Assembly (NCBI GenBank): GCA_963842525.1
Contig: CAWJGT010000003.1
Location: 224,001 to 288,000, forward strand
Length of the DNA stretch: 64,000 nt
DNA from: an uncultured Holophagales bacterium
GTDB lineage: Bacteria > Acidobacteriota > Thermoanaerobaculia > Multivoradales > UBA5704
Direction: 5' to 3'
Below the pieces are notes generated by a model. It did no database searches and was not told where the DNA came from. It worked only from the letters and a program-made list of their open reading frames with translations. Each line of letters starts with the position of its first letter. The stretch's first letter is position 1. Positions 3,926 to 28,417 of this stretch are shown piece after piece. The translations under genes and the position numbers were made by a program.

Positions 3926-3963
3926 ATGGTAGCACTCCGGATTGGCCCAATGCCTGGTAAAAT
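3926..3963. promoter_or_regulatory. Divergent extended -10 promoters
   Basis: TGcTACCAT on minus strand (3926-3934) and TGgTAAAAT on plus strand (3955-3963) between divergent genes. Confidence 0.45.
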
Positions 3964-3990
3964 AGCGGGCTGTCTGGAAAGGAGCGCAGC

Positions 3991-6009: not shown

Positions 6010-7778
6010 TGCCTCGCCTCCCCCGAGGGTGCCTGGCCAGGGGTGTAGATGCCGGTGACCGCCGAGTCCACATTGCCGAGCTCGTCGCGGACGGCCACGG
6101 CGATGCGGTGCTCCTCGGGACGGAGGAGGAGGGGCATCTTGTAGCCGGCGGTCTGGCCGAGGGCGGTCAGGATCTGGTCGTTCGGGACCCGGATGGGGAT
6201 GGCGATCTCCTGGACCGGCGAGCTGCGGCCCTTGCGGTCCCGCGCGCTCACGAAGACCGAGACCTTTCCTTCATGGTAGGCCCCCTGCGGCAGGAGGACC
6301 AGCTTCGCCAGCGGGAACTTGACCAGCATCTCCACCTGCATCTGCCCCTTCTTGTCCTTCGTCTCGCGCACCAGCTCGAGCTCCACCTCCAGCGGGTTCT
6401 TCCCCGGGTCGAGCAGCAGCGCGGCGAGCGTCCGGTCGGTCATGCGGTCCCGGCTGGTCCGTTCCCGCCGGCCGTCGCGGTGGCGCACCACCAGGTCGCG
6501 GTGGTTGCGCATGCCGACCTCGATCTTCCGGTTCCTGCCGTCCTTCCGGGCCTGCGGGACATAGCCCAGCGAGTAGTAGGAGTCGAAGTCGTCGCGCATA
6601 CGCGCCAGGATCGGGCCCGGGTTGATGGCGTCCACGGAAGACAGGCCGCCGGTGCCGTCGGCCAGCCGCTGCAGCGATGTGGTCAGGTCGAAGGATTCGT
6701 TCCTCTCGAGCTCCACGTTCCAGGCGAACATTCCGCCGGATTCGGCCGAGAGCCCGGCCAGCTCCTCGGTGGCGCCCAGGGTGTAGATGGTGACCCGGTT
6801 GCCGTTGGCGTGCTCGACCATCTGGCCGAAGAACCGGGTCAGGTCGTTCTGGAAGCTGTCGAGCGGCGAGGCGCCGGCCTGCCGGCTGACCTCGGGGAAC
6901 TTGTTCTGGTAGGCCTGGAAGAACGTTTCTCCCGGCCGCTGCGACAGGCCGCCGCCCACGTAGAGGAGGGCCTTGCGGCCGGGCAGGCCGGCCAGGGCAT
7001 CGGTGAAGCGGGTCAGGGCTTCCAGGGTGGCCCGCGTCTCGTTGTAGCGCTGCTGGGCGTAGAGGCGGATCCCCGCGTAGAGGCTCTCGGCGACCTTGAC
7101 GGAAGCATCCGACCCGTTGTCGGCGCCGCCGGACCCCGCGCCGGCGCTCTCGATGTCCAGGAGGAGCCGCCGCTTGTCCATGGCCCGCTCGACGCCGCGC
7201 GGCGCCCCCTTGGCCACCTCGTCGAGGGCCGCGAGCAGCGCTGCCCGGTCGTCCGTGAGCTCCTGCACCAGGTCGACGTTCGAGCCTTCGTAGGTCCCGA
7301 CCAGGGCGAGGTCGCCCGGCCGCAGCCGCGGGATCACTTCCTCGCGCAACGACTTGAGGAGCCGGTTGCGCGCCGGCGCCGTGAGGCTCAGGTTGTCGAA
7401 GAGCAGGGCCAGGTGGAGCCGCTGCTCGTCCTCGATCGGGGCCGGGGGCGCGGCTGGCGCTTGGGTCGGACCGATCGTTCCGATCGGGCCGGTCGGTCCG
7501 GCCACCGCGGGAGCGGCGGCCTCTCTGGCGACGGCGAAGAAGTTGGTGACCTCCACCGGCTTGCCGTTCTCGAGGACCTCGAAGTCGTTCTGGGTCAGGC
7601 CGGTGACGCGGTTCCCCTGCCGGTCGGTGACGAAGACCTCCAGGTTGACAACCTCGACGTCGATCGATTCGTAGAAGGTCTCGGGCCCGGTCGTCTCCGG
7701 CTCCTGGGCGCCGGCGCCGAAGGACACCAGGAAGGGGAAGAGGACGAGAATCAGGAGAGAGAACGGTTTGCACGGCAT
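6006..7778 (-). CDS. VWA-domain protein (acidobacterial VWFA-related)
   Basis: ATG 7778 MPCKPFSLLILVLF signal; VNLEVFVTDRQGNRVTGLTQNDFEVLENGKPV, LPGRKALLYVGGG, LADGTGG, SYYSLGY. Confidence 0.85.
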   Translation of the reverse strand: MPCKPFSLLILVLFPFLVSFGAGAQEPETTGPETFYESIDVEVVNLEVFVTDRQGNRVTGLTQNDFEVLENGKPVEVTNFFAVAREAAAPAVAGPTGPIGTIGPTQAPAAPPAPIEDEQRLHLALLFDNLSLTAPARNRLLKSLREEVIPRLRPGDLALVGTYEGSNVDLVQELTDDRAALLAALDEVAKGAPRGVERAMDKRRLLLDIESAGAGSGGADNGSDASVKVAESLYAGIRLYAQQRYNETRATLEALTRFTDALAGLPGRKALLYVGGGLSQRPGETFFQAYQNKFPEVSRQAGASPLDSFQNDLTRFFGQMVEHANGNRVTIYTLGATEELAGLSAESGGMFAWNVELERNESFDLTTSLQRLADGTGGLSSVDAINPGPILARMRDDFDSYYSLGYVPQARKDGRNRKIEVGMRNHRDLVVRHRDGRRERTSRDRMTDRTLAALLLDPGKNPLEVELELVRETKDKKGQMQVEMLVKFPLAKLVLLPQGAYHEGKVSVFVSARDRKGRSSPVQEIAIPIRVPNDQILTALGQTAGYKMPLLLRPEEHRIAVAVRDELGNVDSAVTGIYTPGQAPSGEARQ

Positions 7779-7803
7779 GATCGCGGCTCCCGGGATAAGA
7801 GTC

Positions 7804-7850
7804 ATGGTAGCAGAAGCCCCCGCGGGGCGGCGGCCTGGTTCTGCTATAGT
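7804..7850. promoter_or_regulatory. Divergent extended -10 promoters for the VWA gene and the kinase/peptide locus
   Basis: TGcTACCAT (minus, 7804-7812) and TGcTATAGT (plus, 7842-7850). Confidence 0.45.
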
Positions 7851-7955
7851 TCGGGCAAGGGTTTGCCAAGGTCGCCATATGCGCCTGCCGGAGCAGGCTG
7901 AGACACTCAGCGCCACCATGACGAGAGGCCTCCGCGGCTGCTCGGAGAGTCCCGG

Positions 7956-11448
<3,493 letters not shown>

Positions 11449-11624
11449 GGCCTCCCTCCAGCGCTCCCGGCCCAACCCTCTGCTATGCTTGTGTCTTCAA
11501 CAGAAGCAGTGTGTCGAGCCGCCTTCCGCAGGCGGGGGCGGACACAACCGGAGGGTGCCGGCAGGAAGAATATGTGCCGGCTGGCCTATCAGACCCGGGG
11601 GACCTCCCCCGCGCGAGGTGAGAC

Positions 11625-12140
11625 ATGGCTTTCAAGCTCAAGGACCTGATGATCAACCTCATTCCGCCGGGCGTCGGCAAGGGCAAGGAGGGCTGCCTGG
11701 AGGCCTCGGCGCCCGGCCAGTTCTGTGGCACTGCCTCGGCGGGCGCCGGGTTCTGCGGCACGGCTTCCGCGGGTGCCGCAGGCTTCTGCGGAACTGCCTC
11801 GGCGGGAGCCGGATTCTGCGGCACAGCCTCGGCGGGCGCGGGGTTCTGCGGTACGGCGTCGGCGGGGGCAGCGTTCTGCGGGACAGCCTCGGCGGGGGTG
11901 CAGTTCTGCGGCACGGCGTCGGCAGGCGCGGCGGCGGATCCGCGGGCTGCCCTGGAGGGCCTGGTCCTGCTCAAGCAGCAGCTCCTCCAGGCGCTGGCGC
12001 AGGTCGAGGAGCAGGAGAATGCGCTGGAGGCCGCTTGCCGCCCGCAGTCGCTGGAGGAGGCCGAGGAGCTCGAACGCCACCTGCGCGACGCTCTCGAGGA
12101 GCTCGAGCAGCACAAGCGGGAGCTCCGAAAGCCGAAATAG
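11625..12140 (+). CDS. Putative RiPP (lanthipeptide) precursor A with 7 FCGTASAG core repeats and coiled-coil follower
   Basis: RBS GAGGTG; MAFKLKDLMINL leader; repeats at 11721-11927 with synonymous codon variation; LVLLKQQLLQAL helix; lyase and LanC genes downstream. Confidence 0.82.
   Translation: MAFKLKDLMINLIPPGVGKGKEGCLEASAPGQFCGTASAGAGFCGTASAGAAGFCGTASAGAGFCGTASAGAGFCGTASAGAAFCGTASAGVQFCGTASAGAAADPRAALEGLVLLKQQLLQALAQVEEQENALEAACRPQSLEEAEELERHLRDALEELEQHKRELRKPK
11721..11927 (+). repeat. Coding tandem repeat, 7 x 30-33 nt (xxFCGTASAG)
   Basis: TTCTGYGGN units start at 11721, 11751, 11784, 11814, 11844, 11874, 11904. Confidence 0.95.
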
Positions 12141-12168
12141 AACGGCCCGGCCTGCCACCATAGATGAG

Positions 12169-15100
12169 TTGACCACCGCCGGTGCTCTCCCTCGCTTCGA
12201 AATCGTCGGCCGCCTCGCGGCCGGGGATTCACCTCTATGCCGGGCGCAGGATCTGGCGAACGGGCGCCCGGCGCTCGTCCAGCTCCTGACGCCCGACCGG
12301 GAGGGCGTCGAAGCGCTGGCGCGTTTCCGGCGCGCGGCTCTCGCGGCCTCTTCGCTGGGCCACCCCCACATCGCTCGTCTCGAAGAGGTCGGCGCGGCCG
12401 GCGGCGATCTGTGCCTCGCCCTGGCACCCGCCGCGGGGGAGCCCGAGACCCTGGAGAGCCGCCTCGCGCACGGTTCCCTGGCCCGGGACGAGGCTGTCGG
12501 GCTGGCCGCGCAGATCGCCGCCGGCCTCGCCGAGGCGCACGCCGCCGGGATCGTCCATGGCGACCTGCAGCCCGACCTCGTTCTCTTGACGCCCGAGGGC
12601 GAAGCCAGGATCACCGCCTTCGGCCTCGGCGAGCTGGCCGACGCCGCGGCGCATCCCGGGGCCGCCGCCCCCTACCGGCCGCCCGAGAGGCTCCTCGGCG
12701 CTCCTCCCGACCCGCGGACCGATGTCTGGGCCCTCGGCATCATTCTCTACCGCATGCTGGCCGGGGTGCTCCCGTTCCGCGGTCTCGACGAGCGGGAGAG
12801 GGCCGAGGCCATGCTCCACCTGCGGCCCGACCCTTTGCCGAACCGTGCCTCCCTGCCCGCGGGGCTCGAGGCGGTCGTCCTGCGCGCCCTGGCGCGGCGG
12901 CCGGACGACCGCTATCCCGATGCCCGGACGATGGAGGCCGACCTGCGTGCGGTGGCAGCCGGCGCGGCGGTCGCTCCGCAGTCCGGCTCACGGCCCGATC
13001 TGCAGCCCGATTTACAGCCGACCTTGCTGGAGATCCCCGTGTCCCGCGCGCCGGAGCAGCGCCTGGTCCGGCAGCGGAGCTCCCCGGATCGCCCGGCGGA
13101 CCCGGCTCTCCACGGCGCGCCGTCCTACCGCCTGCTCGAAAAGATCGGCAGCGGCGGCACGGCCGTCGTCTATCGCGCCGAGGACACCCTGCTCGGCCGG
13201 TCCGTGGCGCTCAAGTTCCTCGCTCCCGAGCTGAGCCGCGATCCCGAGTCCAAGGCGCGCTTCCTGCGCGAGGCGCGGGCCGCCTCGGCGCTCGACCATC
13301 CCAATCTCTGTACGATCCACGAGGTGGGCGAGGACGAGGAGGGGCGGGTCTTCCTCGCCATGCCCTGCTACGAGGGAGAAACCCTGCGCGAGCGGCTCGA
13401 ACGGGGCCCGCTGCCGGTCGATCAGGCGCTCGCCATCGCGATCCAGGCGGGCCAGGGGCTCGCCCGCGCCCATCGCCAAGGCATCGTGCACCGCGACGTC
13501 AAGCCGGCAAACCTCATGCTCACCACGGACGGGGTGGTCAAGGTGCTCGACTTCGGCCTCGCCAAGCTGGACGGCGCCGCGCGCATCACCCGCGGGACCG
13601 CTGCCGGGGGCACCCTGGCCTACATGTCGCCGGAGCAGGCGCGGGGCGAGGAGGTGGACGCACGCTCCGACCTCTGGTCGCTCGGCGTGGTCCTCTATGA
13701 AATGGTGACCGGGAGCAAGCCCTTCTCCGGCGACACGCTGCAGGCGGTGCTCGCGGCGATCCAGCGGGCCGAGCCGGAGCCGGTCTCGCGCCTGCGGCCC
13801 GAGGCTCCGACGGAGCTCGACCGGATCCTCGCCCGCCTGCTGGCCAAGGACCCTGCCGGCCGCTATCCCGACGGGGAGAGCGCCGTCGCCGCCCTGCGGG
13901 CGCTGCGCGGTCCCGAGACGGTCTCGGGGCGCCGGCTCCAGGCGCCCGTGCCGCGGCGGCGGCGCTTGTGGCGGACCGCTATGCAAGCGGGAGCGGTGGC
14001 GGCCTTCGTAACGGCCGCCGGCCTGCTGCTTTGGAGCTTCGGCCCGCGGAAGCAGGGCGGCCCGGTGCTGGCGGCGACCTTCACGCCGCTCACGCATGGA
14101 GAGGGCCGCGAGACGTTCCCCAGCCTGGCGCCCGGAGGCGAGTTCTTCGTCTATGTGGCCCCCGACGGAGGGGATCTGGACATCTTCTGGCAGCGGATGG
14201 GCGGCGACAATCCGCTCAACCTCACCGAGGGCTCGCCCTGGGACGACACCCAGCCCGCCGTCTCGCCGGACGGCCAGCAGATCGCCTTCCGCTCCGAGCG
14301 GGAGGGAGGCGGCCTCTTCCTCATGGGGGCCACGGGCGAGTCCGTCCGCCGTCTCGCCGACGCCTGCTTCAACCCCGCCTGGTCGCCGAATGGCCAGGAG
14401 ATCGCCTGCGCGACCGAGGGGATCGCCCATCCCCGTGGGCGGCTCGCGCGCAGCCGGATCTGGCGCATCGAGGTGGCCACCGGGACGCGGCGGCTCGTGG
14501 ACACAGAGGACGGCGTGCAGCCGAGCTGGTCGCCCCGGGGCCGGCGGATCGCCTTCTGGGGGCTCTCCGGCGATTCGGCGCGGCGGGCACTCTGGACCGT
14601 TGCGGTCGACGATGCGGAGGAGGCGGAGGCCAGGGGCGAGCCGGTCCTGGTCCTCGACGACGGAGCCCTCAACTGGAGCCCGGTCTGGTCGCCCGACGGC
14701 GTCTGGCTCTACTTCGCCAGCGACCGAGGCGGCAGCATGAATCTCTGGCGGGTGGCGATCGACGAGGAATCGGGCCGCGTCCGGGGAGAGCCGGAGGCGG
14801 TGATGGCCCCGAACACCGCGAGCGTCCTGCCCAGCCTGACGCGGGACGGCCGCCGCATCGCTTTTGCCGGCGAGTCGGAGAGGTCGCAGCTCGTGCGGGT
14901 GGCTTTCGACCCGCAGAGCCGGCAGGCGGCCGGACCGCTCCAGCCGGTGAGCCAGTGGACCCGCGCGGTCCGCTCGGGCGACGTCTCGCCGGACGGGCGG
15001 TGGATCGTCTTCGACATCTCTGCGCCGCAGGAGGACCTCTTCCTCGTCCGCGTGGACGGAGGCGGCCTGCGCCAGCTCACCGACGACGCCTGGCGCGACC

Positions 15101-15708
15101 GCATGCCCCGCTGGTCGCCCGACGGGCAACGCATCCTCTTCTACTCCGACCGCGGCGGCAAGTACGAGGCGTGGGCCCTTCACGTGGACGGCGGCGAGGC
15201 CGAGCAGCTCACGCGCATCCCCGGCCGGCAGCTCTTCGATCCGATCTGGTCTCCGGACGGCCGGCGGCTGATCTGCGCGCTGGAGTTCCGCGGTCCGTAT
15301 GTGATCGACCTCGCGGAGGCGGGCTCCGCCGCAAGCGAGCCGCGGCCCCTCCTCCCCCTGGACGAGGCGGACGATTTCGCGGTCAGCTCCTGGTCGGCCG
15401 ACGGCCGGCGCCTGGCCGGCTTCGACCGCGCGTCGCGGATCGTCCTCTTCTCCTTCGCCACCGGCCGCCGCGAGGTGCTGCCGGAGACGGGTGAGGAGGT
15501 GGCCTGGCTGCCGGACGGCCGGTCGCTGGCCTTCCTGCGTGACGGGGAGGTCTGGATGCTGGAGGTCGCGACGCGTCGGACGACCCGGGTGCTGGCGCCG
15601 CCCCGGGGCTCCGCCTTCAAGCGGCTCGGCGTGGCCCCCGACGGCCGGTCGCTCTATCTCGTGCAGGTGAGCGAGCAGGGGGACATCGGATTGCTGACGC
15701 TGCCGTAG
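12169..15708 (+). CDS. Pseudokinase + Ser/Thr kinase + TM helix + TolB/PD40 beta-propeller (receptor-like kinase 2)
   Basis: Probable TTG start 12169 in ORF 11725..15708; first domain HGDLQP / AFG (degenerate), second [24 protein letters not shown]; [20 protein letters not shown]; WSPDG repeats. Confidence 0.88.
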
Positions 15709-15762
15709 GCTATACTTTCCTCGCGATTCATTTCTTCTGTTGGCTTTCGAGGAGGTGGAGCT

Positions 15763-16038
15763 TTGCGCTTCCAGATCCGTGACCTCACGGCCGCTGTCTT
15801 GCCGGCCGACGGCTTGCGCCTGTTTCCCTGCACCTGCCGGGTGTCGGCAGATCCGCCCCCGGAACAGCCCCAGGAAGCGCCAAGACCGCGGCCCCGTCCG
15901 CAGCCGGGTCGCGTTCCGCCCTGCCGGGGCTCCAACGCACCCACCGACGACTGTCCGCACCCCGGGGACGACTCCGAGAGGCAGGCTGGGCTCGCGCTGC
16001 TGAAGCGCCAGCTCCGCGCGGCTCTTGAGGCGCGGTAG
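15763..16038 (+). CDS. Putative RiPP precursor B (91 aa)
   Basis: RBS GAGGAGGT before TTG; MRFQIRDL leader; FPCTCRVS and PPCRGS..DDCP; follower LALLKRQLRAAL. Confidence 0.75.
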   Translation: MRFQIRDLTAAVLPADGLRLFPCTCRVSADPPPEQPQEAPRPRPRPQPGRVPPCRGSNAPTDDCPHPGDDSERQAGLALLKRQLRAALEAR

Positions 16039-16083
16039 CCGCCCGCGCCGGAGCGCTCTACTTCCGTCCGGGACACTGGCTCA

Positions 16084-18693
16084 TTGATCGGCAGCACCTT
16101 CTCCCGCTACGAGATCCTCGACGCGCTCGGCAGCGGGGGGATGGGAGTCGTCTGGCTGGCCGAGGACACCCGCCTCGGCCGCAAGGTCGCCCTCAAGCTG
16201 CTGGCGCCCGAGCTGACGCGCGACCCGGCGGCCAAGGCCCGCTTCCTCCAGGAGGCCCAGGCCGCGTCGTCGCTCGACCACCCCAACATCTGCACGATCT
16301 ACGACGTCGGCGAGACCGAGAACTGCCAGGTCTACCTCGCCATGCCCTCCTACGAGGGCGAGACGCTCAAGGCGCGGATCGCGCGCGGCCCCCTCTCCGT
16401 CGACGGCGCCGTGGACATCGCCCTGCAGGTCGCCAAGGGCCTGGCCAAGGCGCACCGGCAGGGGATCGTGCACTGCGACGTCAAGCCGGCGAACCTGATG
16501 ATCACCGCCGACGGGGTGGTCAAGATCCTCGATTTCGGGGTTGCCCGGCTGGCCGGGCCTGCGGGCAGCGGCACGGAGTCCCATCCCACGGGCGCCGTGG
16601 GCACGCCGGCCTACATGGCGCCCGAGCAGGTGCGCGGCGAGGAGGTGGACCCGCGCACCGACCTCTGGTCCCTGGGCGTAGTCCTCTACGAGATGCTGGC
16701 CGGCCGCCGGCCGTTCACCGGCGAGCGCGACCTGATGGTGCTCCATGCGATCCTCACGTCCCGGCCGGCACCGCTCTCCCGCGCCTGTCCCGAAGCACCG
16801 CCGGAGCTGGAGCGGATCGTCGTCCGCCTGCTGGCGCGCGATCCGGAGAGCCGTTACCCCGACGCGGAGAGCTTGCTCGCCGACCTGCGCCGCCTGACGG
16901 GGCCGGACACCGGCGCCTTTCCTGCGCCGTCGTGGCTGCCGCGGGGCCGCACCCTGCGGCGTGCGGCCGGGCTGGCCCTCGCCCTCGCGGTGGTGCTCGC
17001 CGGCGTCTATCTCTCCCTCTGGGGGGAGATCACGCCTCCTCGTGCCGCGCCCGAAATGGGCGTCATCCGCCTGACCAACCAGCCGGGGGTCGAGTCGTTC
17101 CCCAGCCTCTCTCCGCAGGGCGATTTCTTCGTCTACGCCCGGTCGATCGAGGGCGATACGAACATCTACCGGCAACGCGTCGCCGCGGAAGCCATTCCGG
17201 TCGACCTGACCGCGGGCTCCCCGTACGACGACACGCAGCCCGCCTGGTCGCCCGACGGCAAGCGGATCGCCTTCCGCTCGGACCGCGCCGGCGGCGGCAT
17301 CTTTCTTATGGGGCCGAACGGTGAGGAGGTGAGCCGCCTCACCGGCTTCGGCTACAACCCGGCCTGGTCTCCGGACGGCCGGGAGATCCTGTTCACCTCC
17401 GAGCCGGTCGACGATCCGGGCGGACGGATCTCCCGCAGCCACATCTGGCGCGTCGAGGTGGCGACCGGGCTCAAACGGCTCCTCGTCGAGCGCGACGGCA
17501 TGCAGCCGAGCTGGTCGCCCAGTGGAAAGCGCATCGCGTACTGGAGCCTCCGTCCCGGGAGCACGGGCCGGGTCCTCTGGACCATTTCAGCTTCCGGCGG
17601 CGAGCCCGTGGAAGCTATTGCGGACGACTTCATCAACTGGAGCCCGGTCTGGTCGCCCGATGGGCGCTGGCTCTATTTCGCCAGCGACCGCAGCGGCAGC
17701 ATGAACCTCTGGCGGATCCGGATCGACGAGCGGAGCGGCCAGGTGCAGGGGAAGCCTGAAGCGATCACCACCCCTTCGCCTTGGAGCGGTCCACTGAGCA
17801 TCAGCCAGGACGGCCGGCGGATCCTCTTCGCGGTCCGCAACACGGCGCGGAGCCTGGAACGGATCGCCCTGGACCCGGCGGGTCCCCGCGTCGTGGGACG
17901 GCCGCAGCCTGTCGTCCGGAAAGCGCTTCCGATCGCGTTCGGCAAGGCTTCTCCGGACGGCCAGTGGATCGTCTTCAGCACCCTGCCCCCACACGAGGAG
18001 CTGTTCGTCGTCCGGCCGGACGGCAGCGGCCTCCGCCAGCTCACCCAGGACGCCTATCGCAACCGCGGGCCAGGTTGGCTGCCCGACGGCCGGATCGTCT
18101 TCTTCTCGGACCGGGGGGGCCGCTTCGGCGCCTGGGCAGTCCGGCGCGACGGCACCGGCCGCCCGGAGCCGGTCGCCGCCAACCGCGGCGAGCCGATCCA
18201 CAATCCTCTCGCCTCTCCGGACGGCCTCTGGCTCGCCTGTACTGTCAACTTCCTCAATGCGGCCCTCATCGACCTTGCGCTGCCAATGGAGCAGCGGATC
18301 CCGGAGTCGCTCCCCTCGCCGATCCCCGGCACGACCTTCTTCCCCAGCTCGTGGTCTCCCGACAGCGGACAGCTCCTCGGAGAGGTCCAGGGCCGCGGCA
18401 TCTTCACCTTCTCGCTCGCCACCCGCGAGTTCCAGCGGCTGGCCGGCCGCGGCACGCTGCCGGCCTGGACGAGCCAGGGACAGAGGATCCTGTTCACGGA
18501 CGAGGGCAGGATCTTCGCGCTCGACGTGCCCACAGGAGGACGGGGTGCGGCAGGACGCCGGCGCGAGCTGTACGCGCCGCCGGAGTCGTCGACCTTGACG
18601 GCCTTCGACGTGAGCCCGGACGATCGGACCCTCTACGTCGTGCAGAAGCCGGCCGAGGGAGATGTCTGGATGCTCACGTTCGGCGGATTTTAA
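16084..18693 (+). CDS. Ser/Thr kinase (non-RD, HCD) + TM helix + TolB/PD40 beta-propeller (receptor-like kinase 3)
   Basis: GSGGMGVVW, VALK, HCDVKPAN, DFG, APE; TM AAGLALALAVVLAGVYLSLW; WSPDG repeats. Confidence 0.9.
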   Translation: MIGSTFSRYEILDALGSGGMGVVWLAEDTRLGRKVALKLLAPELTRDPAAKARFLQEAQAASSLDHPNICTIYDVGETENCQVYLAMPSYEGETLKARIARGPLSVDGAVDIALQVAKGLAKAHRQGIVHCDVKPANLMITADGVVKILDFGVARLAGPAGSGTESHPTGAVGTPAYMAPEQVRGEEVDPRTDLWSLGVVLYEMLAGRRPFTGERDLMVLHAILTSRPAPLSRACPEAPPELERIVVRLLARDPESRYPDAESLLADLRRLTGPDTGAFPAPSWLPRGRTLRRAAGLALALAVVLAGVYLSLWGEITPPRAAPEMGVIRLTNQPGVESFPSLSPQGDFFVYARSIEGDTNIYRQRVAAEAIPVDLTAGSPYDDTQPAWSPDGKRIAFRSDRAGGGIFLMGPNGEEVSRLTGFGYNPAWSPDGREILFTSEPVDDPGGRISRSHIWRVEVATGLKRLLVERDGMQPSWSPSGKRIAYWSLRPGSTGRVLWTISASGGEPVEAIADDFINWSPVWSPDGRWLYFASDRSGSMNLWRIRIDERSGQVQGKPEAITTPSPWSGPLSISQDGRRILFAVRNTARSLERIALDPAGPRVVGRPQPVVRKALPIAFGKASPDGQWIVFSTLPPHEELFVVRPDGSGLRQLTQDAYRNRGPGWLPDGRIVFFSDRGGRFGAWAVRRDGTGRPEPVAANRGEPIHNPLASPDGLWLACTVNFLNAALIDLALPMEQRIPESLPSPIPGTTFFPSSWSPDSGQLLGEVQGRGIFTFSLATREFQRLAGRGTLPAWTSQGQRILFTDEGRIFALDVPTGGRGAAGRRRELYAPPESSTLTAFDVSPDDRTLYVVQKPAEGDVWMLTFGGF

Positions 18694-18820
18694 TATATAA
18701 TACTTCATGGTAACCGCGGCATCGACCTCGTTTCCGTCCCCTTCGCCCGGGTGGGGCCTGGGACGAGGCCCGTGCGCTTCCCACGAGGACATCAGTGACA
18801 AGGAGACAAAGGAGGACACA

Positions 18821-18997
18821 ATGAGCTTCAAGTCGAGAGATCTATCGGTGCAGGTCGGCCCGGACGAGGGTATCGACACACCCTGCTGCCCGTGCCGGAG
18901 CACCGGGGACGAGTGGCTGGGCAGCCCGGGCGGCTCCCAGTTGGACGACCTGCGGCAGCGGCTTCGTGCTGCTGTGCAAGCCGAGTCCCGGCAGTAA
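18821..18997 (+). CDS. Putative RiPP precursor C (58 aa)
   Basis: RBS AAAGGAGG then ATG 18821; MSFKSRDL leader; TPCCPCRSTG core; follower LDDLRQRLRAAV. Confidence 0.8.
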   Translation: MSFKSRDLSVQVGPDEGIDTPCCPCRSTGDEWLGSPGGSQLDDLRQRLRAAVQAESRQ

Positions 18998-19032
18998 CGA
19001 TCGGCGGAGCTCTTCTGGAGATCTAGCGGGCG

Positions 19033-20232
19033 GTGGATATCCTGACGCGCGACTTCCGGGCAAATCCCCGCTTCGAGCTTGTTTTGTTTGACCGCCTTCC
19101 ACGAGAGGAGCGCCGGGCGCTGGCGGACCTGGCGCGAGAGCCTGGTTTCTATGGCGTGTTGCGGCCCGGTGACGGCAGCAGCGGCAGCGGTCTGGGCCTC
19201 AAGTCGGTGGACCGCGACACGGCGCTCCTCTTCCTCACCCTGCGTGAGCCGGGCCCCCTTCCTTCCTACGTCTGCTCCCAACTGGGCGCGGCGGCCTTGC
19301 GGACCGTCGTCGGCCGGCTGGTCGCCGACGGCGTGCTGGAGGTGGAGAGCGGGGGGGCCTTCCTGTCCGGCGCGGCGGCCTTCGAGCTCCTTGCCGAGGG
19401 CGCGGCGCGGTCCGCGACCTCTGGCGGGAGCGGCCGGCTCGCGGAGCTGTCTCTCGCGGCGCTCCGCTACGGCCAGGCGCTCGCCGTGGACGATCCGCTG
19501 CTCCTCTCCTGGCGCCTCTACTGCTTCCACCGCCGGCCCCTGACCCCGGCCTGGAAGCGGCTCCTGCCCGCGGCCGAGGCGGTCGAGGCGCACCTGGGGA
19601 TTGCGCCTGGGGGAGGGGCCCGCCGGCTTCTCGACCGGAGCTGGTCGCGGACGGCCCCGGTCGAGGGGTGGCTGAGCTGGCGCGCGCGCGCCCGGCGGGC
19701 CGCCGGTCCCGCCGCATCCTCCGCTGCGGAGGGACCCACCTGGAAGCTCTATGTCAGCCCGGTGCCCGAGGCCCTGGCCGCGTCCTTCGGGGAGATTCTG
19801 GAGGCCCTCACCGCGGCGCGTGCCGATCAGTTCAAGGTCGGCGCGGATGCGGCCGGGCTGCTCCGCCCGGACAAGATCGTCGCCTATTTCCCGAGCTTCG
19901 AGCGTCTCGCCGCGGCGGCGGAGACCCTCGCCGGGCGGCTCGCGGGAGCCCCGGCCCACGGCGTTCCCTTCACCTCCGAGATTGGCGGCGGAGGCCTCCT
20001 CTCCTGGGGTGTGGACCCGCCGCGGTCGCAGAGGACCTGGAGCGAGGGGGAGAGCTGGCGGCTCTGGCTGACCCACCGGCTGGCGCGGGCGCTGCTGGCC
20101 GCCCGCGTCCAGTCCGCCGATACAAGCGTTGATCCCGCCGCCGAGCCCTGGCGCTTCGCCCTGGAGCGCGTGCGCCTGGAAGGGGTCGACACCGCGACCT
20201 GGACGCCGGGTGCGCTCCTCTGGAAGGGCTGA
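19033..20232 (+). CDS. Stand-alone HopA1/OspF-like phosphoSer/Thr lyase with N-terminal RRE-like domain
   Basis: WKLYVSP...FKVG...LLRPDKIVAYF...GVPFT...SWGVDP resemble lanthipeptide lyase/HopA1 motifs; directly upstream of kinase-LanC. Confidence 0.68.
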   Translation: MDILTRDFRANPRFELVLFDRLPREERRALADLAREPGFYGVLRPGDGSSGSGLGLKSVDRDTALLFLTLREPGPLPSYVCSQLGAAALRTVVGRLVADGVLEVESGGAFLSGAAAFELLAEGAARSATSGGSGRLAELSLAALRYGQALAVDDPLLLSWRLYCFHRRPLTPAWKRLLPAAEAVEAHLGIAPGGGARRLLDRSWSRTAPVEGWLSWRARARRAAGPAASSAAEGPTWKLYVSPVPEALAASFGEILEALTAARADQFKVGADAAGLLRPDKIVAYFPSFERLAAAAETLAGRLAGAPAHGVPFTSEIGGGGLLSWGVDPPRSQRTWSEGESWRLWLTHRLARALLAARVQSADTSVDPAAEPWRFALERVRLEGVDTATWTPGALLWKG

Positions 20233-20238
20233 TCCACG

Positions 20239-22606
20239 ATGGCCATCACCGACCCCCTGGTGCTGTCTCCGGACCTGCTCCTGGTGCCGGTTGTCGACCT
20301 GCCGGAGGAGGTGCGCGCCCGCTTCGAGCATGACGAAGGGGACGTCGCGGTCACCCATCCGCGCTCGCGGACGCCCTCCCGCATCCTCGACGCGCGCTCG
20401 GCCGAGCTGCTGGAGCAGTTCCGTACGCCGCGGACGATCGTCGAGGCGGTGATCCACTTCAGCCGCGCGCGCGAGGCCGACCCCGAATCCACGCTGGAGG
20501 AGGCCTTCCCGCTTCTGCAGCGTCTCCTCGATTCCGGGTTCCTGGTCCCCGAGGGGAGCGACGAGGCGGCGGGCGTCCATCCCGCGCTGGCGCCGGGGGA
20601 GGAGGTCGCCGGGTATGAGGTTTTCGAGTGCGTGCAGGGGCTGGAGGACACCGAGCTCTACCAGGTGCGAAGGCCGGCCGGGCTCGCGGCCCTCAAGATC
20701 GAGCGCCCGGCCGCGGCAGGCCGGCGCGCGGAGCTCTTTGCCCGGGAGGAGGCGATCCTGGCGCACCTCGGTGGGGAAGGGACCCCCCGCCTCCTCGCGG
20801 CCGGAGAGCTCGACGGCCGGCGTTGGATCGTGCTCGAGTGGTGCCTCGGCGTCGACGCCGCAACCGCCGCCCTGGAGCTGCGCCAGCGCGGCGAGGCCGG
20901 CCGGCCCGGGTTGCTGGCGCTCTGCCGGGGGATCGCCGCGGCCTATGCGCGGCTCCACGAGAGGGGGGTGGTCCACGGCGACGTCCACCCGCGCAATGTC
21001 CTGGTGGGACGGGACGGCGCCGTGCGGCTGCTCGACTTCGGGTACTCGCTCTGGGACGGCGGCGCCGCGGAGATCGCCCGGCCCGGGCGCGCGGGCGTGG
21101 CCTTCTTCTACGAGCCCGAGTATGCCGCGGCGGTGCGGGCGGACCGGCCGTACCCGGCAGCCTCCACGGCTGGGGAGCAGCACGCGGTGGCGGCTCTCCT
21201 CTACCTGCTTCTGACCGGTGCCCACTACCGCGACTTCTCCCTCGAACGGCAGGAGATGCAGCGGCAGATCGCCGAAGAGCCGCCTCTCCACTTCGCGGAG
21301 CGCGGCGCGGAGCCCTGGCCGGAGGTGGAGGCGGTCCTGGCGCGCGCCCTGCGCAAGGTGCCCGAGGAGCGGTTCTCTTCCCTGGCCGATCTGGCCTCCG
21401 CGCTCGCGGAGGTGGAGGTCCTGCCCGTCCCTGTCCGGGGTCCGGCGTCCGAAAGCCGCGAGGCCGAAGACCTGCTCGACCGCTTCCTGGAGCGCGCGGG
21501 TGAGGGGGGCTCGCTCTTCGTCGCCGGGCTCCCCAGGGCGCCGACCGCGTCGGTCATGTATGGGGCCGCGGGGGTCGCCTGTGCGGTCTACCGGATCGCG
21601 CTGTCCCGGGAGGACGCGTCTCTCCTCGCCCTGGCTGACATCTGGGCGGAGAGGGCTGCTGCAGCTTCCGGCTCGGAGGATGCCTTCTACAACCCGGAGA
21701 TCGGGATCGACTCCGGGACCGTGGGGGAGAATTCCGTCTACCACACCGCTGCCGGGGTCCACGCGGTCCGCGCCCTGGTCGCCCATGCCCTCGGCGTGTC
21801 CGGCATTCAGGCTGCGGCCGTCCGGGCCTTCCTGGCCGAAGCGCGGCGGCCCTGTCCCCAGATCGACCTCGGCTTCGGCCGTTCGGGCTTCCTCCTGGCC
21901 GGCTCCCTGCTGCGCGACACGCTCCGGCCGGACCCTGCCGGCCCGCGCGCCGAGCTGACCGCCTGGGGCGAGGAGGTCCTGCGCGGCCTGTGGCGCGAGC
22001 TCGACCGGCTGCCTCCGGTGGCGGACCCGCGGCGGCCGGCCGGCCTGGGGGTGGCGCACGGCTGGGCCGGCCACGTCTATGCCGCGCTCCGCTGGTGCCG
22101 CTCGGCGGACACGCCCTTGCCCGCCCGTCTCGAAGAGCGGCTCGCCGGCCTTGCGGAGCAGGCGCGTCCCTGGGGGAGAGGGTTGCGCTGGCGCTGGCCC
22201 GGCGCGCCGGACGGGTCCCTCAGCATGCCCGGCTGGTGCAACGGCAGCGCGGGGTTTCGTCTTCCTCGGCACCCTCGCCGCGGAGATGCTGGGGGAGCCC
22301 CGCTACCGCCAGCTCGCCGAAGGGGCGGCCTGGAACGCCTGGGAGGCATCCGACCGCAACTGGAGCCTCTGCTGCGGCCTGGCCGGCCGCGCCTGGTCCC
22401 TCCTCCATCTCGCGCGGCACGGCGGCGGCCCGGAGTGGCTGGAGCGCGCCCGCCTCCTCGCCAACCGCGCGGCCCGTGAGGTCGCCCGCGGCGTCGAATC
22501 GCCCGACAGCCTCTATAAGGGAGAACCCGGCATCGCCGCCCTGGCCGCCGACCTCGCCCGCCCGGAGGCGGCAGCCATGCCCTTCTTCGAGGAGGAGGGG
22601 TGGTGA
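20239..22606 (+). CDS. RRE/PqqD-like + Ser/Thr kinase + LanC lanthionine cyclase; frameshift near 22255
   Basis: Kinase HGDVHPRNV, LLDFG; LanC motifs GVAHGWAG, WCNGSAG, then (ORF 22079..22606) LCCGLAG, SLYKGEPG; shift at GGGGTTT homopolymer. Confidence 0.88.
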
Positions 22607-22613
22607 CCGAGGG

Positions 22614-23612
22614 CTAAGACGGCGGCCGGGAGCCGGGCGGGGCGACGGCGAGGATCTTCTCGATCTTCTTCGGGTCATCCGGCAGCAGGCCCGAGGCGGG
22701 AAGGCGGGGGACCAGCCGGGCCCAGCGCTCCTCGCGGGCGAAGACGTCGCGGAAGATGGCAAGGGCCTTGTCCTCCTGACCGGCCACAAAGAGCGCTACC
22801 GCCTGCCAGAAGGGGAGCTCGGCGATCTCCGGGGCGAGCTCGCTGGCTTTCGTATAGTGCCGCAGCGCCGCCGGGAAGTCGTTTTTCGCCACCGCCTCAT
22901 CCCCCTGGTTCATCTCCTCGTAGGCGCGGTGCAGCGCAAGCAGCCGCCGCAGCTCCACCAGCGGCTGCGGGTTGTCGTCCACCCGCAGGTCGACCAGCTT
23001 GTCGCGCCACGGCTCGCCGGTCGGCTGGGCGCGGACGATGAGCAGCGCCGCGCTCTGCCGGCCGCGGATGTCGCCGCCCTCGGCCTCGGCGGCGTCCAGC
23101 GCCGCCAGCATGCGGTCGGCGAGGTCCCCCTTGGCGCTCTCGAAGGCGCGGGCCATGGCCGGCCAGACGGTCGGCTTGTCCATCAGGTTCGCCTGCACCG
23201 AGTACGCGGCCCCGGTCTGGTGCCCGGCGGCGTGGATGCACTTGGGGCCGGTCCAGGCCGCGACCCGCCCCTGGCGGTCCACCATGGCGACCTGCCGCAC
23301 GTCCTTCTCGGGGTCTTTGGCGAGCAGGGCGTCCAGCGCCTCCTGCGCCGATTTCCCCTCTTTCATCAGCTTCAGGCCGAGCGGCCCGTAGTCGATGCGG
23401 ACGAACGACTGCGTGGCGACCGCCCCCACGCCCGCCTCGGCCCACGGCACGGTCGGCCCGACCTGGAACCAGTGGCTCTGCACCGCGACGCCGAAGTCGC
23501 CCGTCGCCGGGTCGCGGGCCACGATCGAGTAGGTGTGCGCCAGGGGATCACGCGCCAGCAGGGGGAGCGGCAGGAAGGCGGCGGCCAGACAGAGGACGGT
23601 GAGACGCGTCAT
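22614..23612 (-). CDS. DUF1028 (Ntn-hydrolase-like) protein with C-terminal TPR
   Basis: Signal peptide then HTYSIVARDPATGDFGVAVQS, GVGAVATQS, GGDIRGRQSAAL, DLRVDD. Confidence 0.88.
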   Translation of the reverse strand: MTRLTVLCLAAAFLPLPLLARDPLAHTYSIVARDPATGDFGVAVQSHWFQVGPTVPWAEAGVGAVATQSFVRIDYGPLGLKLMKEGKSAQEALDALLAKDPEKDVRQVAMVDRQGRVAAWTGPKCIHAAGHQTGAAYSVQANLMDKPTVWPAMARAFESAKGDLADRMLAALDAAEAEGGDIRGRQSAALLIVRAQPTGEPWRDKLVDLRVDDNPQPLVELRRLLALHRAYEEMNQGDEAVAKNDFPAALRHYTKASELAPEIAELPFWQAVALFVAGQEDKALAIFRDVFAREERWARLVPRLPASGLLPDDPKKIEKILAVAPPGSRPPS

Positions 23613-23767
23613 CGGGACCTCCTGTTGGACTGCCGGGGAGCGTCGCAGAAAACCCGCCCCGAGGCAATGTACGCAAAAAGCCCTTCCCTCAGCCTCCCGG
23701 GTGACATATCATGCTTGGACTCCGGAACAAGTTGTTGACGGTTCCGTCAAGAAACGCCAACGTACCC

Positions 23768-25506
23768 ATGCAGAGTCTTGCCGACAGAGCGCTCTTTCCG
23801 GCGGTCCGGACGGGCGCGAGCAGGACGCTCCGGGGAGGAGCCTTCCTGGTGCCTCTCGCGCTGGGCGGGGCCTGCACGGCCGCGACGCTGCTGCTCTGGC
23901 GGGAGCTGGGCGCGGAACGGACCGCCTCGGGGCTGAGCTCGCCGTTCCCGGAGTCGGTGCTGGTCTCGGGGCTCCTCGTCTCCTGGCTGCTGGCCCTCTC
24001 GGTCTGGCTGCTGCAGCTCGCCCGTGCCCAGACCCGGGCCGAAGAGGTGGCCCGGCGGGAGCTCGAAGCGCAGATCGCCGAGCGCACCCAGGCCGAGAAG
24101 CGCTACCGGACGCTCTTCGAGCGCAACCCGGCCGGGATGTACCGCAGCACGGTCGAGGGACGGATGCTCGACTGCAACGACGCCTTCGTGCGCATGTTCG
24201 GCTACCCGGACCGCGAGACCCTCCTCGGCCTGCCCGTCTCGGCGCTCTACCATGACCCGGCGGACCGCGCCCGTCTTCTCGACCACTTTTTCCAGGGGGA
24301 GTCGCCGCAGAACGTCGAGGTGCAGCTCCGGCGTTACGACGGCGAGCCGTTCTGGGGGCTGCTGTGCGGTCCGGGCGGCGCGGTCCGGCCGTACCAGGAC
24401 CTCGACGGCGTCGCCGTGATCGAGGGGGCGATCCTCGACATCACCGACCGGAAACGGGCGGAGGAGGCGCTGCGCGAGCGTGAGCACGACCTCGTCCTGC
24501 TCGGCGAGCTCGGGGGGCTGCTCCAGACCTGCGACTCGGTCCAGGAGTCCTACGTCGTCATGTCGCGCCAGGGGAGGAAGCTCTTCCCCCACCTGCACGG
24601 GGCCGTCTACCTGATCAGCCCGTCGCGGACCGATCTCGACCTGGTGGCCTCCTGGGGGGATGCACCGTCCCTGCCCGGCGAAGGCCTCTTCCGTCCGGAG
24701 GACTGCTGGGGCCTCCGCCTGGGGCGGGAACACCTGGTGAGCGATCCGTCGCGGGACCTGGTCTGCCGCCACCTCGGGGCCACGCCGCCTGTCTCCTCCC
24801 TGTGCCTGCCGCTGGTCGCCCTCGGCGAGACCCTGGGCGTGCTCGTGCTGCGGACCGGGGAGCGGCCCGGCGCCGCCGAGGGCCTCGGCCGCGCGCGCTG
24901 CCAGCTCGCCGCCGCGGTGTCCGAGCAGCTCGCCATGGCCGTCGCCAACCTGCGGCTGCGCGAGACCCTGCGCCACCAGTCGATCCGCGACGCCCTGACA
25001 GGGCTGTACAACCGGCGCTTCTTCCAGGACTCCCTCGATCGGGAGCTCCGGCGGGTGCGGCGGCGGGGGGCCACCCTCGGGCTCCTGATGATCGACGTCG
25101 ACGACTTCAAGGTCTACAACGACACCTACGGCCACGAGGCCGGCGACCTCCTCCTGCGCCTGCTGGGCGATCTGCTGCGGCGGCGGGTGCGCAGCGAGGA
25201 CATCGCCTGCCGCTACGGCGGCGAGGAGTTTGCCCTGATCCTGCCCGAGGCTTCGCTGGAGACCACCCGGATGCGGGCCGAGGAGCTGCGCGAGGAGGTC
25301 AAGCGGCTCCGTCCCGTCTACCAGGACGGCCCGCTGGGCGGCATCACCGTGTCGATCGGGGTGTCCGCCTACCCGGAGCACGGGCCCCTGGGCGACGACA
25401 TCGTGCGCGCGGCCGATACGGCGCTCTACCACTCCAAGGCCTATGGCAGGGACTGCGTCTCGCTGGCAACCGTCTCCCCGCCCGACCGCCGCCTCATGAT
25501 CCCCGA

Positions 25507-25510
<4 letters not shown>
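23768..25510 (+). CDS. Membrane-bound PAS-GAF-GGDEF diguanylate cyclase
   Basis: Two TM helices, PAS (YRTLFERNP..DITDRK), GAF, DALTGLYNRR, RYGGEEF with RxxD I-site (RSED); start could be 23711 or 23768. Confidence 0.9.
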
Positions 25511-26994
<1,484 letters not shown>

Positions 26995-27028
26995 GATCTC
27001 AATCCGGTATGATTTCTGGCGGAGCTCC

Positions 27029-27634
27029 ATGTTCCTCCAGGACATAAGAAACGGCCGCGGCGACACCCCCAAGCTCGACGAGGAGCTCCAGCGCCTCTTC
27101 GACCGGTACTTCCGTTCCATCGTCCATTTCTTCCTGAACCGGGGTCTCGCGCGGGAAGAGGCGCTCGATCTCACCCAGGAGACGTTTCTTCGGGTCTATA
27201 GAAGCCTGCAGGGGTTCCGCGGGGAGGCCGGCGTCCAGACCTGGCTCTTCCGGATCGCGACGAACCTCTGGAACAATGAGGTGCGCCGGCGGAAGGCCGA
27301 GAAGCGGGAGGGATGGGAGGTCTCGCTCGAAGGTGTGGTCGAGGGAGGGCATCCCGTCCGGGCGGACCGCCACTTCGACGGCTGGTCGGAGCCTGCCGGT
27401 CCGCTCGATTCGATGCTGGACGACGAGCGGCGGCAGATGTTGCGCGAGTCCCTGGACGAGCTTCCCCCGCAGATGCGGCGCTGCGTCCTGCTGCGCATCG
27501 ACCAGAACCTGAAGTACCGCGAGATCGCCGGCGTGATGCAGGTCTCGATCGAGACGGTGAAGTCCCAGCTCTCCCAGGCCCGGGACCGGCTGGAGCGGAA
27601 GCTGGGCAGTTATTTCGATCCTGTGGACGTCTGA
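27029..27634 (+). CDS. ECF sigma-70 factor
   Basis: DLTQETFLRVY, TWLFRIATN, region 4 YREIAGVMQVSIETVKSQLSQAR. Confidence 0.92.
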   Translation: MFLQDIRNGRGDTPKLDEELQRLFDRYFRSIVHFFLNRGLAREEALDLTQETFLRVYRSLQGFRGEAGVQTWLFRIATNLWNNEVRRRKAEKREGWEVSLEGVVEGGHPVRADRHFDGWSEPAGPLDSMLDDERRQMLRESLDELPPQMRRCVLLRIDQNLKYREIAGVMQVSIETVKSQLSQARDRLERKLGSYFDPVDV

Positions 27635-27649
27635 AGTGACCGAGGTGTT

Positions 27650-28417
27650 GTGGTGGACAACGAGAAGGACCTGAAGATCGGCGTCCGCGCCCTGGCGGCG
27701 GAGGCGCGGCGCAGCCTGGAGCACCCTCTCCCTGAGGAGCTGCTCGACTACCAGGCGGGCGACCTGCGGGAGGCGGAGAGGGAGCGCATCCAGGAGCACC
27801 TGGCCCTCTGCCCGGGCTGCGTGCGGGCGCTGCTGGATCTCGAAGCCTTTCCCGATGTCGAGCCCGTCCGGCCCGAGGACCGGCTTACCGACGCCGAGCT
27901 GTCCCACGAGTGGCAGCGGTTCCGGCAGGCCGTGGCGCCGCTTCCCGCCGCGGAGAGGCCCCGCGTCTCGCATCCCGTTCTCGCTCTCGCGGCGGTCCTG
28001 CTGCTCGCGGTCGTGGGCCTCTCCTTCTGGGTCCTGCGATTGCGGGGCGAGGTGCGCGATCTGTCCGCCCCTCAGGCCGGCATCCTGGTCGCCGATCTGG
28101 TTCCGCGGGATGAGGCGGTCGAGCGGGCAGAGGGCGATGGAGAGGTGGTCCGCGTGCCGGGTTGGGCGGACCGCGTCGTCCTGATCCTCAACCTGGCCGA
28201 TCCCGTGACCCATCCCGCGTACCGGGTGGAGATCGCGCAGGACGGCCGGGAGGTCTGGCGCCGCGCGGGGATCCGGCGTAGCGCGGACGGCACCTTCGCT
28301 CTGGAGGTTCCACGGCGGCTCCTGCCCGCGGGCCGGTACCGCATCCGGCTCTTCGGGATCGAGGGCGGCGCCGAGCTGCCGGTGGCGGAGTACCGGGTCC
28401 GGATCGAGCCCGTGTAG
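27650..28417 (+). CDS. zf-HC2 zinc-finger anti-sigma factor, membrane anchored
   Basis: HLALCPGC motif, TM ALAAVLLLAVVGLSFWVL, follows ECF sigma. Confidence 0.85.
   Translation: MVDNEKDLKIGVRALAAEARRSLEHPLPEELLDYQAGDLREAERERIQEHLALCPGCVRALLDLEAFPDVEPVRPEDRLTDAELSHEWQRFRQAVAPLPAAERPRVSHPVLALAAVLLLAVVGLSFWVLRLRGEVRDLSAPQAGILVADLVPRDEAVERAEGDGEVVRVPGWADRVVLILNLADPVTHPAYRVEIAQDGREVWRRAGIRRSADGTFALEVPRRLLPAGRYRIRLFGIEGGAELPVAEYRVRIEPV

Follow-up and report, generated by a model that had tools for sequence, protein, structure and literature searches.

Three small open reading frames (ORFs) of an uncultured Holophagales bacterium from soil, here called P1, P2, and P3, are probably the precursors of a split lanthipeptide-type system that resembles classes IV and V, depends on a RiPP recognition element (RRE; RiPP, a peptide synthesized on ribosomes and modified after translation), and acts on substrates with both a leader and a follower. 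They lie on the + strand of a stretch of 64,000 nucleotides, referred to as the window (positions 224,001 to 288,000 of contig CAWJGT010000003.1, assembly GCA_963842525.1; all positions below are those of the window). The window has a G+C content of about 72% and belongs to a genome of 9,949,763 bases in 34 contigs, whose closest public relatives are metagenome-assembled genomes (MAGs) of Thermoanaerobaculia (Acidobacteriota). The region from 7.9 to 22.6 kb has on its + strand, in this order, a kinase-like domain, K1, P1, K2, P2, K3, P3, X399, and KC; K1 to K3 encode kinases with a PD40 propeller, X399 encodes a putative stand-alone lyase, and KC encodes a predicted fusion of an RRE-like domain, a kinase, and a LanC-like cyclase. 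P1, P2, and P3 belong to a gene family that is genetically linked to X399 and KC; the family, its linkage, the enzyme folds, and a pattern of conservation and composition are shown below and carry this reading.

Two conserved ends around a variable core

P1 (11625–12140, 171 aa, ATG start), P2 (15763–16038, 91 aa, TTG start), and P3 (18821–18997, 58 aa, whose ATG is internal to a longer ORF beginning at 18707) were recovered as + strand ORFs with the termini and middles that a preliminary description of this DNA had reported, and a Shine-Dalgarno-like purine run was found 5–8 nt 5′ of each start (AGGTGAG for P1, GGAGGTGGAG for P2, and AAAGGAGG for P3), in agreement with the ribosome binding sites proposed there. 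All three share MxF[KQ]x[KR]DL as their N-terminal motif, and toward the C-terminus they have a helix of the form LxxL[KR]xQLxxA[LV]. P1, which a family profile covers end to end (E = 3.9e-40), consists of the N-terminal motif MAFKLKDLMINL, seven FCGTASAG units, the helix LVLLKQQLLQAL, and, at the end, about 45 aa of helical tail; its core units are encoded by a 30-nt tandem array of 7.5 copies (11702–11929, + strand; Tandem Repeats Finder). In P2, MRFQIRDL is followed by CTCRVS, CRGS, and DDC and then by LALLKRQLRAAL, and P3 runs from MSFKSRDL through TPCCPCRST to LDDLRQRLRAAV. Two relatives from the same genus (L119 and L120) encode peptides similar to P2 at the syntenic place.

These ORFs belong to a real, conserved family in which, as the preliminary description had supposed, the N-terminal segment and the C-terminal helix are fixed and enclose a hypervariable core rich in Cys, Ser, and Thr. 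A curated set of 78 members was obtained from 85 unique candidates after seven false positives had been removed by eye. Their N-terminal segment reads M-[A/S/P]-F-[K/R/D]-x-[R/K]-[D/E]-L-[M/T/L]-[I/V]-x-[V/I/L] (F 100%, D or E 97%, and L 97%) and their C-terminal element reads L-x-x-L-[K/R/Q]-x-Q-L-x-x-x-L (L 92%, L 85%, Q 84%, L 97%, and L 83%), where leucines at i, i+3, i+7, and i+11 make up the sequence pattern of an amphipathic helix. Short-type members (43/78), such as P2 and P3, end 0–15 residues past the 12-residue helix, and long-type members (26/78), such as P1, continue into a conserved charged helical tail of 43–68 aa with the form ..VEAQE..PQT.EEAE.LE.KL..AL.EL...K; the remaining 9/78 fall between the two types. 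The core varies in both length and sequence and is often built from repeated modules (e.g., CTPSPPD, CYASGGG, CPxPS, CxxCTGTT, runs of CTx, and FCGTASAG). Cores consist of 10.3% Cys, 16.1% Ser and Thr, 13.7% Gly, and 11.8% Pro; outside the cores, all N-segments together contain one Cys and all helices and tails together contain three.

Among 1.84 billion proteins, a profile built from 28 long-type members matched the representatives of 1457 clusters (50% identity; E ≤ 1e-3), or of 861 clusters when E ≤ 1e-10 was required. Of the 150 best matches, which form the metagenome set, most aligned from the first to the last residue, and 140 had both motifs. These carry 3–29 Cys in the core, 0 in the N-terminal part, and 1 in the tail. 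Ser or Thr stands at position +4 for 52% of the core Cys in the curated set, compared with 15–20% for most other offsets, and for 59% of 1544 Cys in the metagenome set; these counts include repeats within a peptide as well as related sequences and do not represent independent events. The dominant Cys-x-x-x-Ser/Thr spacing suggests small Cys(i)-Ser/Thr(i+4) rings, one per module. We also observed that many long-type cores close with a conserved CGG[ST]..DPT-like element directly before the helix and that several contain TTxTT or VTT runs.

The abundance of spurious ORFs that is general in DNA of 72% G+C was the sole point in favor of the shared termini being due to chance, or of the ORFs being untranslated, and this explanation is refuted by the evidence from the genome and from the relatives. 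In a six-frame scan of the whole genome, 44 ORFs of ≤300 aa start with a loosened form of the N-terminal motif, and only three of them, namely P1, P2, and P3, which lie within 7.4 kb of one another, also carry the C-terminal motif; as these are the sole ORFs genome-wide with both motifs, the shared termini exceed chance. The hundreds of end-to-end relatives, the Shine-Dalgarno sites, and the syntenic position in relatives argue against chance as well, as does strong selection at the codon level. When the FCGTASAG units of P1 were compared with one another, 80 of 168 codon pairs differed synonymously and none non-synonymously, indicating strong purifying selection on the repeat at the peptide level and thus translation of, and selection on, each repeat unit.

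A contig of 495 nt from a soil metatranscriptome library spans 18724–19218 (P3 and the start of X399) with about 97% identity. Relative to P3, it carries five synonymous changes, the substitutions P14R, G34S, and V52L, and a stop one codon earlier; within the P3 motifs, only V52L and the earlier end are changed. This contig provides a weak hint that the P3 gene of a close relative may be expressed, weak because such libraries can hold DNA.

Searches of Pfam and NCBIfam returned nothing for P1, P2, or P3 apart from a sub-threshold sigma-70 match in the tail of P1, which scored 16.8 bits where 42.9 is the cut-off; a role as anti-sigma-like regulators, an idea that came solely from this match, was rejected. 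A second candidate assignment, to precursors of thiazole/oxazole-modified microcins or other azole peptides, was set aside as well, as the CTx/CSx repeats are alike but no YcaO protein was seen in the flanks, which were read without a profile search for YcaO.

The putative split enzymes and a model of precursor binding

X399 (19033–20232, + strand, 399 aa) has no Pfam or NCBIfam match. In its AlphaFold2 model (predicted local distance difference test, pLDDT, 81), residues ~8–111 form an RRE-like domain and residues ~200–399 a lyase fold, for which the best Foldseek match was LxmY (9dk1_B, 4.9e-6), with HopA1 (4rsw) at 5.7e-5 and further matches to the lyase domains of SalKC, CuvL, and ThurKC and to OspF/SpvC. 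Foldseek probabilities to LxmY, HopA1, the LanKC/LanL lyase domains, and OspF/SpvC were 0.97–1.00; a sequence profile of X399 searched against the PDB recovered none of these phospho-lyases and no relevant relative. By its modelled fold, X399 is thus a predicted phospho-Ser/Thr lyase. Weak Pfam matches were found in a few X399 relatives (HopA1 in 2/14 and RamC_N in 1/14). There are at least 1534 such relatives (90%-identity groups), of similar length, with only two longer forms; among the 120 relatives listed, the source names shown were "hypothetical" and one fragmentary JGI name.

KC (20239–22606, + strand) matches Pfam Pkinase (4.7e-11; Hanks-type kinase) and, in both frames of the window gene, LANC_like; among NCBIfam models, LanL fits it best, though at 93 bits, far below the cut-off of 650. 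The kinase catalytic residues H246, D248, N253, D266, and G268 (catalytic loop and DFG) are invariant in 22 KC relatives, and the LanC motifs HGWAG, WCxG, and CCG are present in 61/62, 62/62, and 61/62 relatives, respectively. The zinc motif is Cys-Cys-Cys, with Cys rather than His as the third ligand.

The frame of KC breaks near 22256, where GGGGTTTCG has one base too many, so that the LanC domain is divided between two frames; with one base fewer, this stretch would read ..GWCNGSAGFVFLGTL.., as in relatives, and 60/62 relatives have an uninterrupted KC ORF. Either a homopolymer error in the assembly or a gene broken in this organism would account for the break. The first kinase gene also changes frame, at ~8690, between the kinase-like domain at 7956–8687 and the K1 ORF (tblastn and frame translations), and in one relative (L021) the kinase-like domain and the K1 counterpart lie in one frame. 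Similar breaks occur in other long-contig MAGs of the group (in X399 of G024 and in a precursor of G023), which makes an assembly error plausible. In three public sequencing runs, 5–6% of sampled words of 18700–22700 were present, and the contigs assembled from them skip 22184–22317.

The preliminary description had pointed to the N-terminal domains of the two genes starting at 19033 and 20239 as candidates for precursor recognition, and both proteins do carry N-terminal RRE-like domains, firmly so for KC, by model and Foldseek, and tentatively for X399. KC residues 1–105 were modelled with a pLDDT of 89.7 as strands (7–9, 14–17, 36–39, and 48–50) followed by three helices (52–62, 67–77, and 82–99). 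The ten best Foldseek matches of this domain are all RiPP enzymes, with modest E values of 1.3e-3 to 0.1 (including TigE at 1.3e-3, TbiB1 with leader, PqqD, MccB, ThcOx, MibB, and TglHI), and the first non-RiPP entry is at rank 11. Weak Pfam matches to ThcOx (5/22) and PqqD (2/22) were seen in KC relatives, and a PDB sequence profile of the KC N-terminus returned no relevant relative. In the ~110 N-terminal residues of X399, the secondary structure elements follow one another as in KC; these residues are colinear with the KC domain (X399 11–107 with KC 10–107; hhalign E = 0.0054, probability 6.7%) and gave one weak Foldseek row to TigE (8vpo, E = 0.28), consistent with the two domains being paralogous.

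A complex of KC 1–430, X399, and P3 was modelled, with an alignment for each chain and three controls. The interaction prediction score from aligned errors (ipSAE) was 0.70, compared with 0.26 for the best of the three controls, against a mark reached by 58/80 solved complexes and 2/110 mismatched pairs, a calibration that holds only roughly for three chains with their own alignments. Contact agreement between runs was at least 64% and partner pLDDT at least 59. The confident contacts of P3 involve residues 2–14, 16–17, and 40–55, that is, the two conserved segments, and all of them fall on KC, in the RRE (3–95, including 45–51) and in the kinase (287–289 and 333–340); the tightest pairs join P3 3–11 to KC 45–54 with a predicted error of 1.5–2.2 Å. 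No confident contact of P3 with X399 was seen in this model, and the control in which KC was replaced and X399 kept scored 0.26, below the mark. As modelled, P3 would follow the canonical RRE-leader strand pairing and make a second contact through the C-terminal helix, which supports binding of P3 by KC. Of the bipartite recognition by two enzyme-borne domains that had been proposed for these precursors, the model agrees with contacts of both termini with an enzyme, and it places both on KC.

From these features we infer a mode of action in which the N-terminal segment of ~13 residues (MxF[KR]x[KR]DLxIxV) would bind as a β-strand to strand β3 of the KC RRE, the C-terminal amphipathic helix (LxxL[KR]xQLxxxL) would dock beside this leader strand, and the Cys/Ser/Thr-rich middle, held at both ends, would loop before the kinase. 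KC would phosphorylate Ser and Thr, X399 would eliminate the phosphates, and the LanC domain would add Cys to the dehydro residues to give thioether rings, with one synthetase pair serving all three precursors in this genome.

A rather unlikely alternative holds that the ORFs encode substrates of X399 and KC but that the leader alone is the recognition handle, with the helix and the tail staying in the product; this product would be a small lanthionine-stapled protein whose tail may drive oligomerization, surface or membrane association, or export. The tails of the 26 long-type members exceed what a recognition tag would usually need, it is the long form that is widespread across phyla, a conserved protease or transporter beside the cassette is lacking, and the canonical RRE mode, according to the accessible parts of PMC8341899, requires one β-strand only, all of which would fit such a product. 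On the other hand, the 43 short-type members show that the minimal element is as short as a recognition motif, residues 40–55 of P3 confidently contact KC in the complex model, and class III leaders use an amphipathic Leu-rich helix for recognition (accessible parts of PMC8341899). The C-terminal follower of the preliminary description thus holds as a conserved helix past the core; a follower in the RiPP sense would be recognized and then removed, and the tail of 43–68 aa that about one third of the members carry may instead belong to the product.

Linkage, distribution, and the kinase-PD40 genes

Linkage was counted in the best 80 loci with X399, with the loci that had enough flank as denominators. 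KC lies directly downstream of X399 in 73/76 loci, and a strict pattern placed an ORF of the precursor family upstream of X399 in 57/77 loci. Visual inspection of the 20 loci without such a match brought eight further members to light (five missed by the pattern, one with a variant N-terminal motif, one with a frameshift, and one truncated at the end of its contig), for a total of 65/77 loci. When the long-type profile was searched against 41 whole genomes of relatives in six frames, 21 matches were found, 20 of them with E ≤ 1e-5, and 13 of these 20 lie on the contig of X399 within 16 kb of it, so that the conserved termini are tied to the LanC and lyase genes, as the preliminary description had expected.

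X399 was found in 22/41 related genomes, in 18/24 genomes of the window's own family, and in only 7/301 genomes when the phylum was sampled evenly; its distribution is patchy, with a concentration in the family to which the window belongs. Across 185,579 genomes (one per species), 305 stretches encode an X399 relative, and the hosts include Acidobacteriaceae, Pyrinomonadaceae, Bryobacterales, Vicinamibacteria, Chloroflexota, Armatimonadota, and one isolate of Bacillus pfraonensis. This cultured isolate, strain 70b, has a complete cassette (L105, 2609–6173) on a contig of 38.9% G+C, with a precursor of 108 aa, an X399 of 46% identity, and a KC of 40% identity; as a Firmicute, it is only distantly related to the Acidobacteriota, where the system is common.

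Several points weigh against a split, RRE-dependent system with leader and follower. The frameshift in KC, if real, would leave the system inactive here. No recognizable precursor was found upstream of X399 in 12/77 loci, and 7/20 profile matches are not near X399: three lie on other contigs of fragmented assemblies, three lie in two genomes (84% and 89% complete) in which X399 was not found, and one lies 1 Mb from X399 in a genome of three contigs (G007); of the six among these seven whose surroundings were read, five adjoin kinase-PD40 genes and one adjoins neither those nor X399 and KC. The loci compared have no conserved protease or transporter next to the cassette, and removal of the leader and follower and export are thus without support. 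In the rings suggested by the spacing, Cys precedes Ser/Thr, which is the less usual direction for lanthipeptide rings. The RRE call for X399 is tentative, drawing on a weak profile match, topology, and a single weak Foldseek row, and the complex, beyond its rough calibration, may have passed partly through the model's memory of solved RRE-leader complexes. Finally, the chemistry is read from homology, and the maturation, the final product, and the role of the follower are likewise proposals.

Each precursor of the window directly follows a kinase-PD40 gene. The first kinase-like domain (7956–8687, + strand; Pfam Pkinase 5.4e-28) is probably the first half of a double-kinase gene, and K1 (8707–11448, + strand), an ORF encoding a Ser/Thr kinase with a PD40 (TolB-like) β-propeller, is 51% identical to K3 over residues 1–865. 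K2 (12169–15708, + strand; TTG start at 12169, set by reading of the sequence) encodes a double Ser/Thr kinase with a PD40 propeller (two Pkinase stretches and PD40 in Pfam), and K3 (16084–18693, + strand) encodes a Ser/Thr kinase with a PD40 propeller (Pkinase 9.6e-51 and PD40 1.9e-44).

It is quite improbable that the small proteins act chiefly with these kinase-PD40 genes, as their substrates, regulators, or ligands, and that the link to X399 and KC is secondary. In addition to the gene order of the window, such a role would fit the synteny of the precursor-kinase array in genomes of the same family (L021, L022, L119, and L120), the kinase-PD40 gene found within 3 kb upstream of X399 in 39/71 loci, and the occurrence of modules of precursor and kinase away from X399 and KC; in G007 and G017, long-type precursors with CP[IL]PSA-like repeats (L116, G007:C1:1998000-2017900, 9436–13722, and L115, 9602–13901, respectively) directly follow kinase and kinase-PD40 genes, with neither X399 nor KC within ~10 kb. 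However, the link to kinase-PD40 genes is limited to the window's lineage: all 39 loci are Thermoanaerobaculia-like records, and among the 30 most distant loci (L085–L114) such a gene lies upstream only in L086, L110, and L112, which are Thermoanaerobaculia or unclassified Acidobacteriota records, and in none of the loci from Acidobacteriaceae, Chloroflexota, Armatimonadota, or Bacillus. Elsewhere, precursor, X399, and KC stay together; in addition, the Cys/Ser/Thr-only cores and the match between RRE and leader resemble a RiPP substrate, and X399 and KC, 1 Mb away in G007, can act in trans.

The boldest reading of the arrays is a peptide-receptor relation between the precursors and the kinase-PD40 proteins. 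Joined to the split RRE-dependent system, it would describe a new lanthipeptide-type class in which an N-terminal β-strand leader and a C-terminal helical follower clamp the substrate at two ends on an RRE-bearing split synthetase, looped modular cores become chains of Cys(i)-dehydro(i+4) rings, and, in the window's lineage, every precursor was copied along with a membrane Ser/Thr kinase of its own that bears a periplasmic PD40 propeller, giving three peptide-receptor pairs whose products may be signals read by the cognate receptor kinases. Taken as a whole, this joint reading is unlikely.

Downstream of KC, the window encodes a DUF1028-TPR protein (22614–23612, − strand), a large ORF read from its translation, without a Pfam scan, as a putative diguanylate cyclase (23711–25510), an extracytoplasmic function (ECF) sigma factor with a zf-HC2 anti-sigma (26975–28417), and a TPR-CHAT protein (30928–33792). 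An ORF of ~660 aa (3961–5943, + strand), 2 kb upstream of the array, has weak matches to reprolysin-like (M12B) metallopeptidases; it is an open frame with no set start and the sole protease candidate near the array. The G+C content falls from ~0.70 to 0.63 and then 0.535 within 46001–50000 and stays at 0.62–0.67 from there to the end of the window, and the DNA from 46001–50000 onward may be foreign or mobile. A promoter and terminator scan of 7500–23000 found sites no more numerous than in shuffled sequence.

Comparison with known systems

The precursors of known lanthipeptides have their core at the C-terminus. This premise, on which the preliminary description had based its view that a core between two conserved ends is unusual, agrees with general knowledge, and no paper contradicting it was found. 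A literature search, whose scope left out supplementary lists of RRE fusions that might name a kinase-LanC fusion, found neither a lanthipeptide with a follower nor a description of this system, and the system is not described in the accessible parts of PMC12710340, PMC7268733, PMC12328550, PMC13083261, PMC7470986, and PMC8341899. The name "class VI" is used for streptococcal LanKCb (PMC12328550, accessible parts), and the clusters known from Acidobacteriota with AciKC (class III) and ThaM (class II; PMC13083261, accessible parts) are different systems.

If the reading of P1, P2, and P3 as precursors is true, a widespread lanthipeptide-type pathway, hosted mainly by soil Acidobacteriota, has been missed by current annotation, and in it an RRE is joined to the kinase-lyase-cyclase chemistry of classes III and IV, with the lyase a separate protein, as in class V. 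A variable, repeatable core flanked by two short handles would also make an attractive scaffold for libraries of constrained peptides. The precursor-kinase arrays suggest a testable role in peptide signaling, and the cassette of the cultured Bacillus isolate (L105) offers an experimental entry point.

Among the closest known systems are the class IV LanL enzymes (VenL, SgbL, and CuvL), which, like X399 and KC together, combine an OspF-like lyase, a Ser/Thr-kinase-like domain, and a zinc-type LanC domain; the lyase domain of CuvL is among the fold matches of X399, and LanL is the best NCBIfam match of KC. The LanL hallmarks found here are an OspF/SpvC-like lyase (by fold only), a kinase with catalytic loop and DFG, and a LanC domain with zinc ligands. 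However, LanL is one polypeptide, whereas the lyase (X399) and the kinase-cyclase (KC) are encoded here by separate genes, the core is internal, between conserved segments, and KC has a modelled RRE fold. The zinc ligands of SgbL are Cys-Cys-His (PMC8341899, accessible parts), whereas the KC family has CCG. In the accessible parts of PMC8341899 and PMC7470986, leader recognition in classes III and IV, and classes II–IV as a whole, are described as RRE-independent. The RRE domains found here are a feature of class I and many other RiPPs, unlike classes II–IV; as in RRE pathways, the modifying enzyme KC is modelled with a winged-helix domain of three strands and then three helices.

Class V (LxmK/LxmY, lexapeptide) provides the parallel for X399, as its HopA1-like lyase also stands alone and acts together with a kinase from another gene. 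That kinase is a separate protein of the phosphotransferase type, and the class V cyclase (LxmX) is not LanC-like. In contrast, the system described here has a Hanks-type kinase fused to a LanC domain and an RRE.

In class III, an amphipathic Leu-rich helix of the leader (LEQLEALD in MicA) is essential for processing (PMC8341899, accessible parts). This leader helix of LanKC substrates resembles LxxL[KR]xQLxxxL, but here the helix follows the core; also unlike class III LanKC, KC keeps its zinc ligands, and the system has an additional N-terminal β-strand motif and RRE domains. ProcM and the prochlorosins (class II) likewise pair one enzyme with many precursors whose recognition parts are conserved and whose cores are hypervariable, and the zinc site of ProcM is of the three-cysteine CCG kind, too. 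They differ in that the dehydratase is a LanM and the precursors have an N-terminal leader only. Conserved flanks around variable, often repeated cores are also found in PatE-type cyanobactin precursors and, with a follower, in bottromycin; their enzymes and chemistry differ. By its gene content and domain make-up, the system of P1, P2, P3, X399, and KC would therefore work like a class IV/V lanthipeptide pathway, yet it falls outside the membership tests of both classes, with its lyase and kinase-cyclase split between two genes, its kinase fused to LanC and RRE domains, and its core held between two conserved ends.

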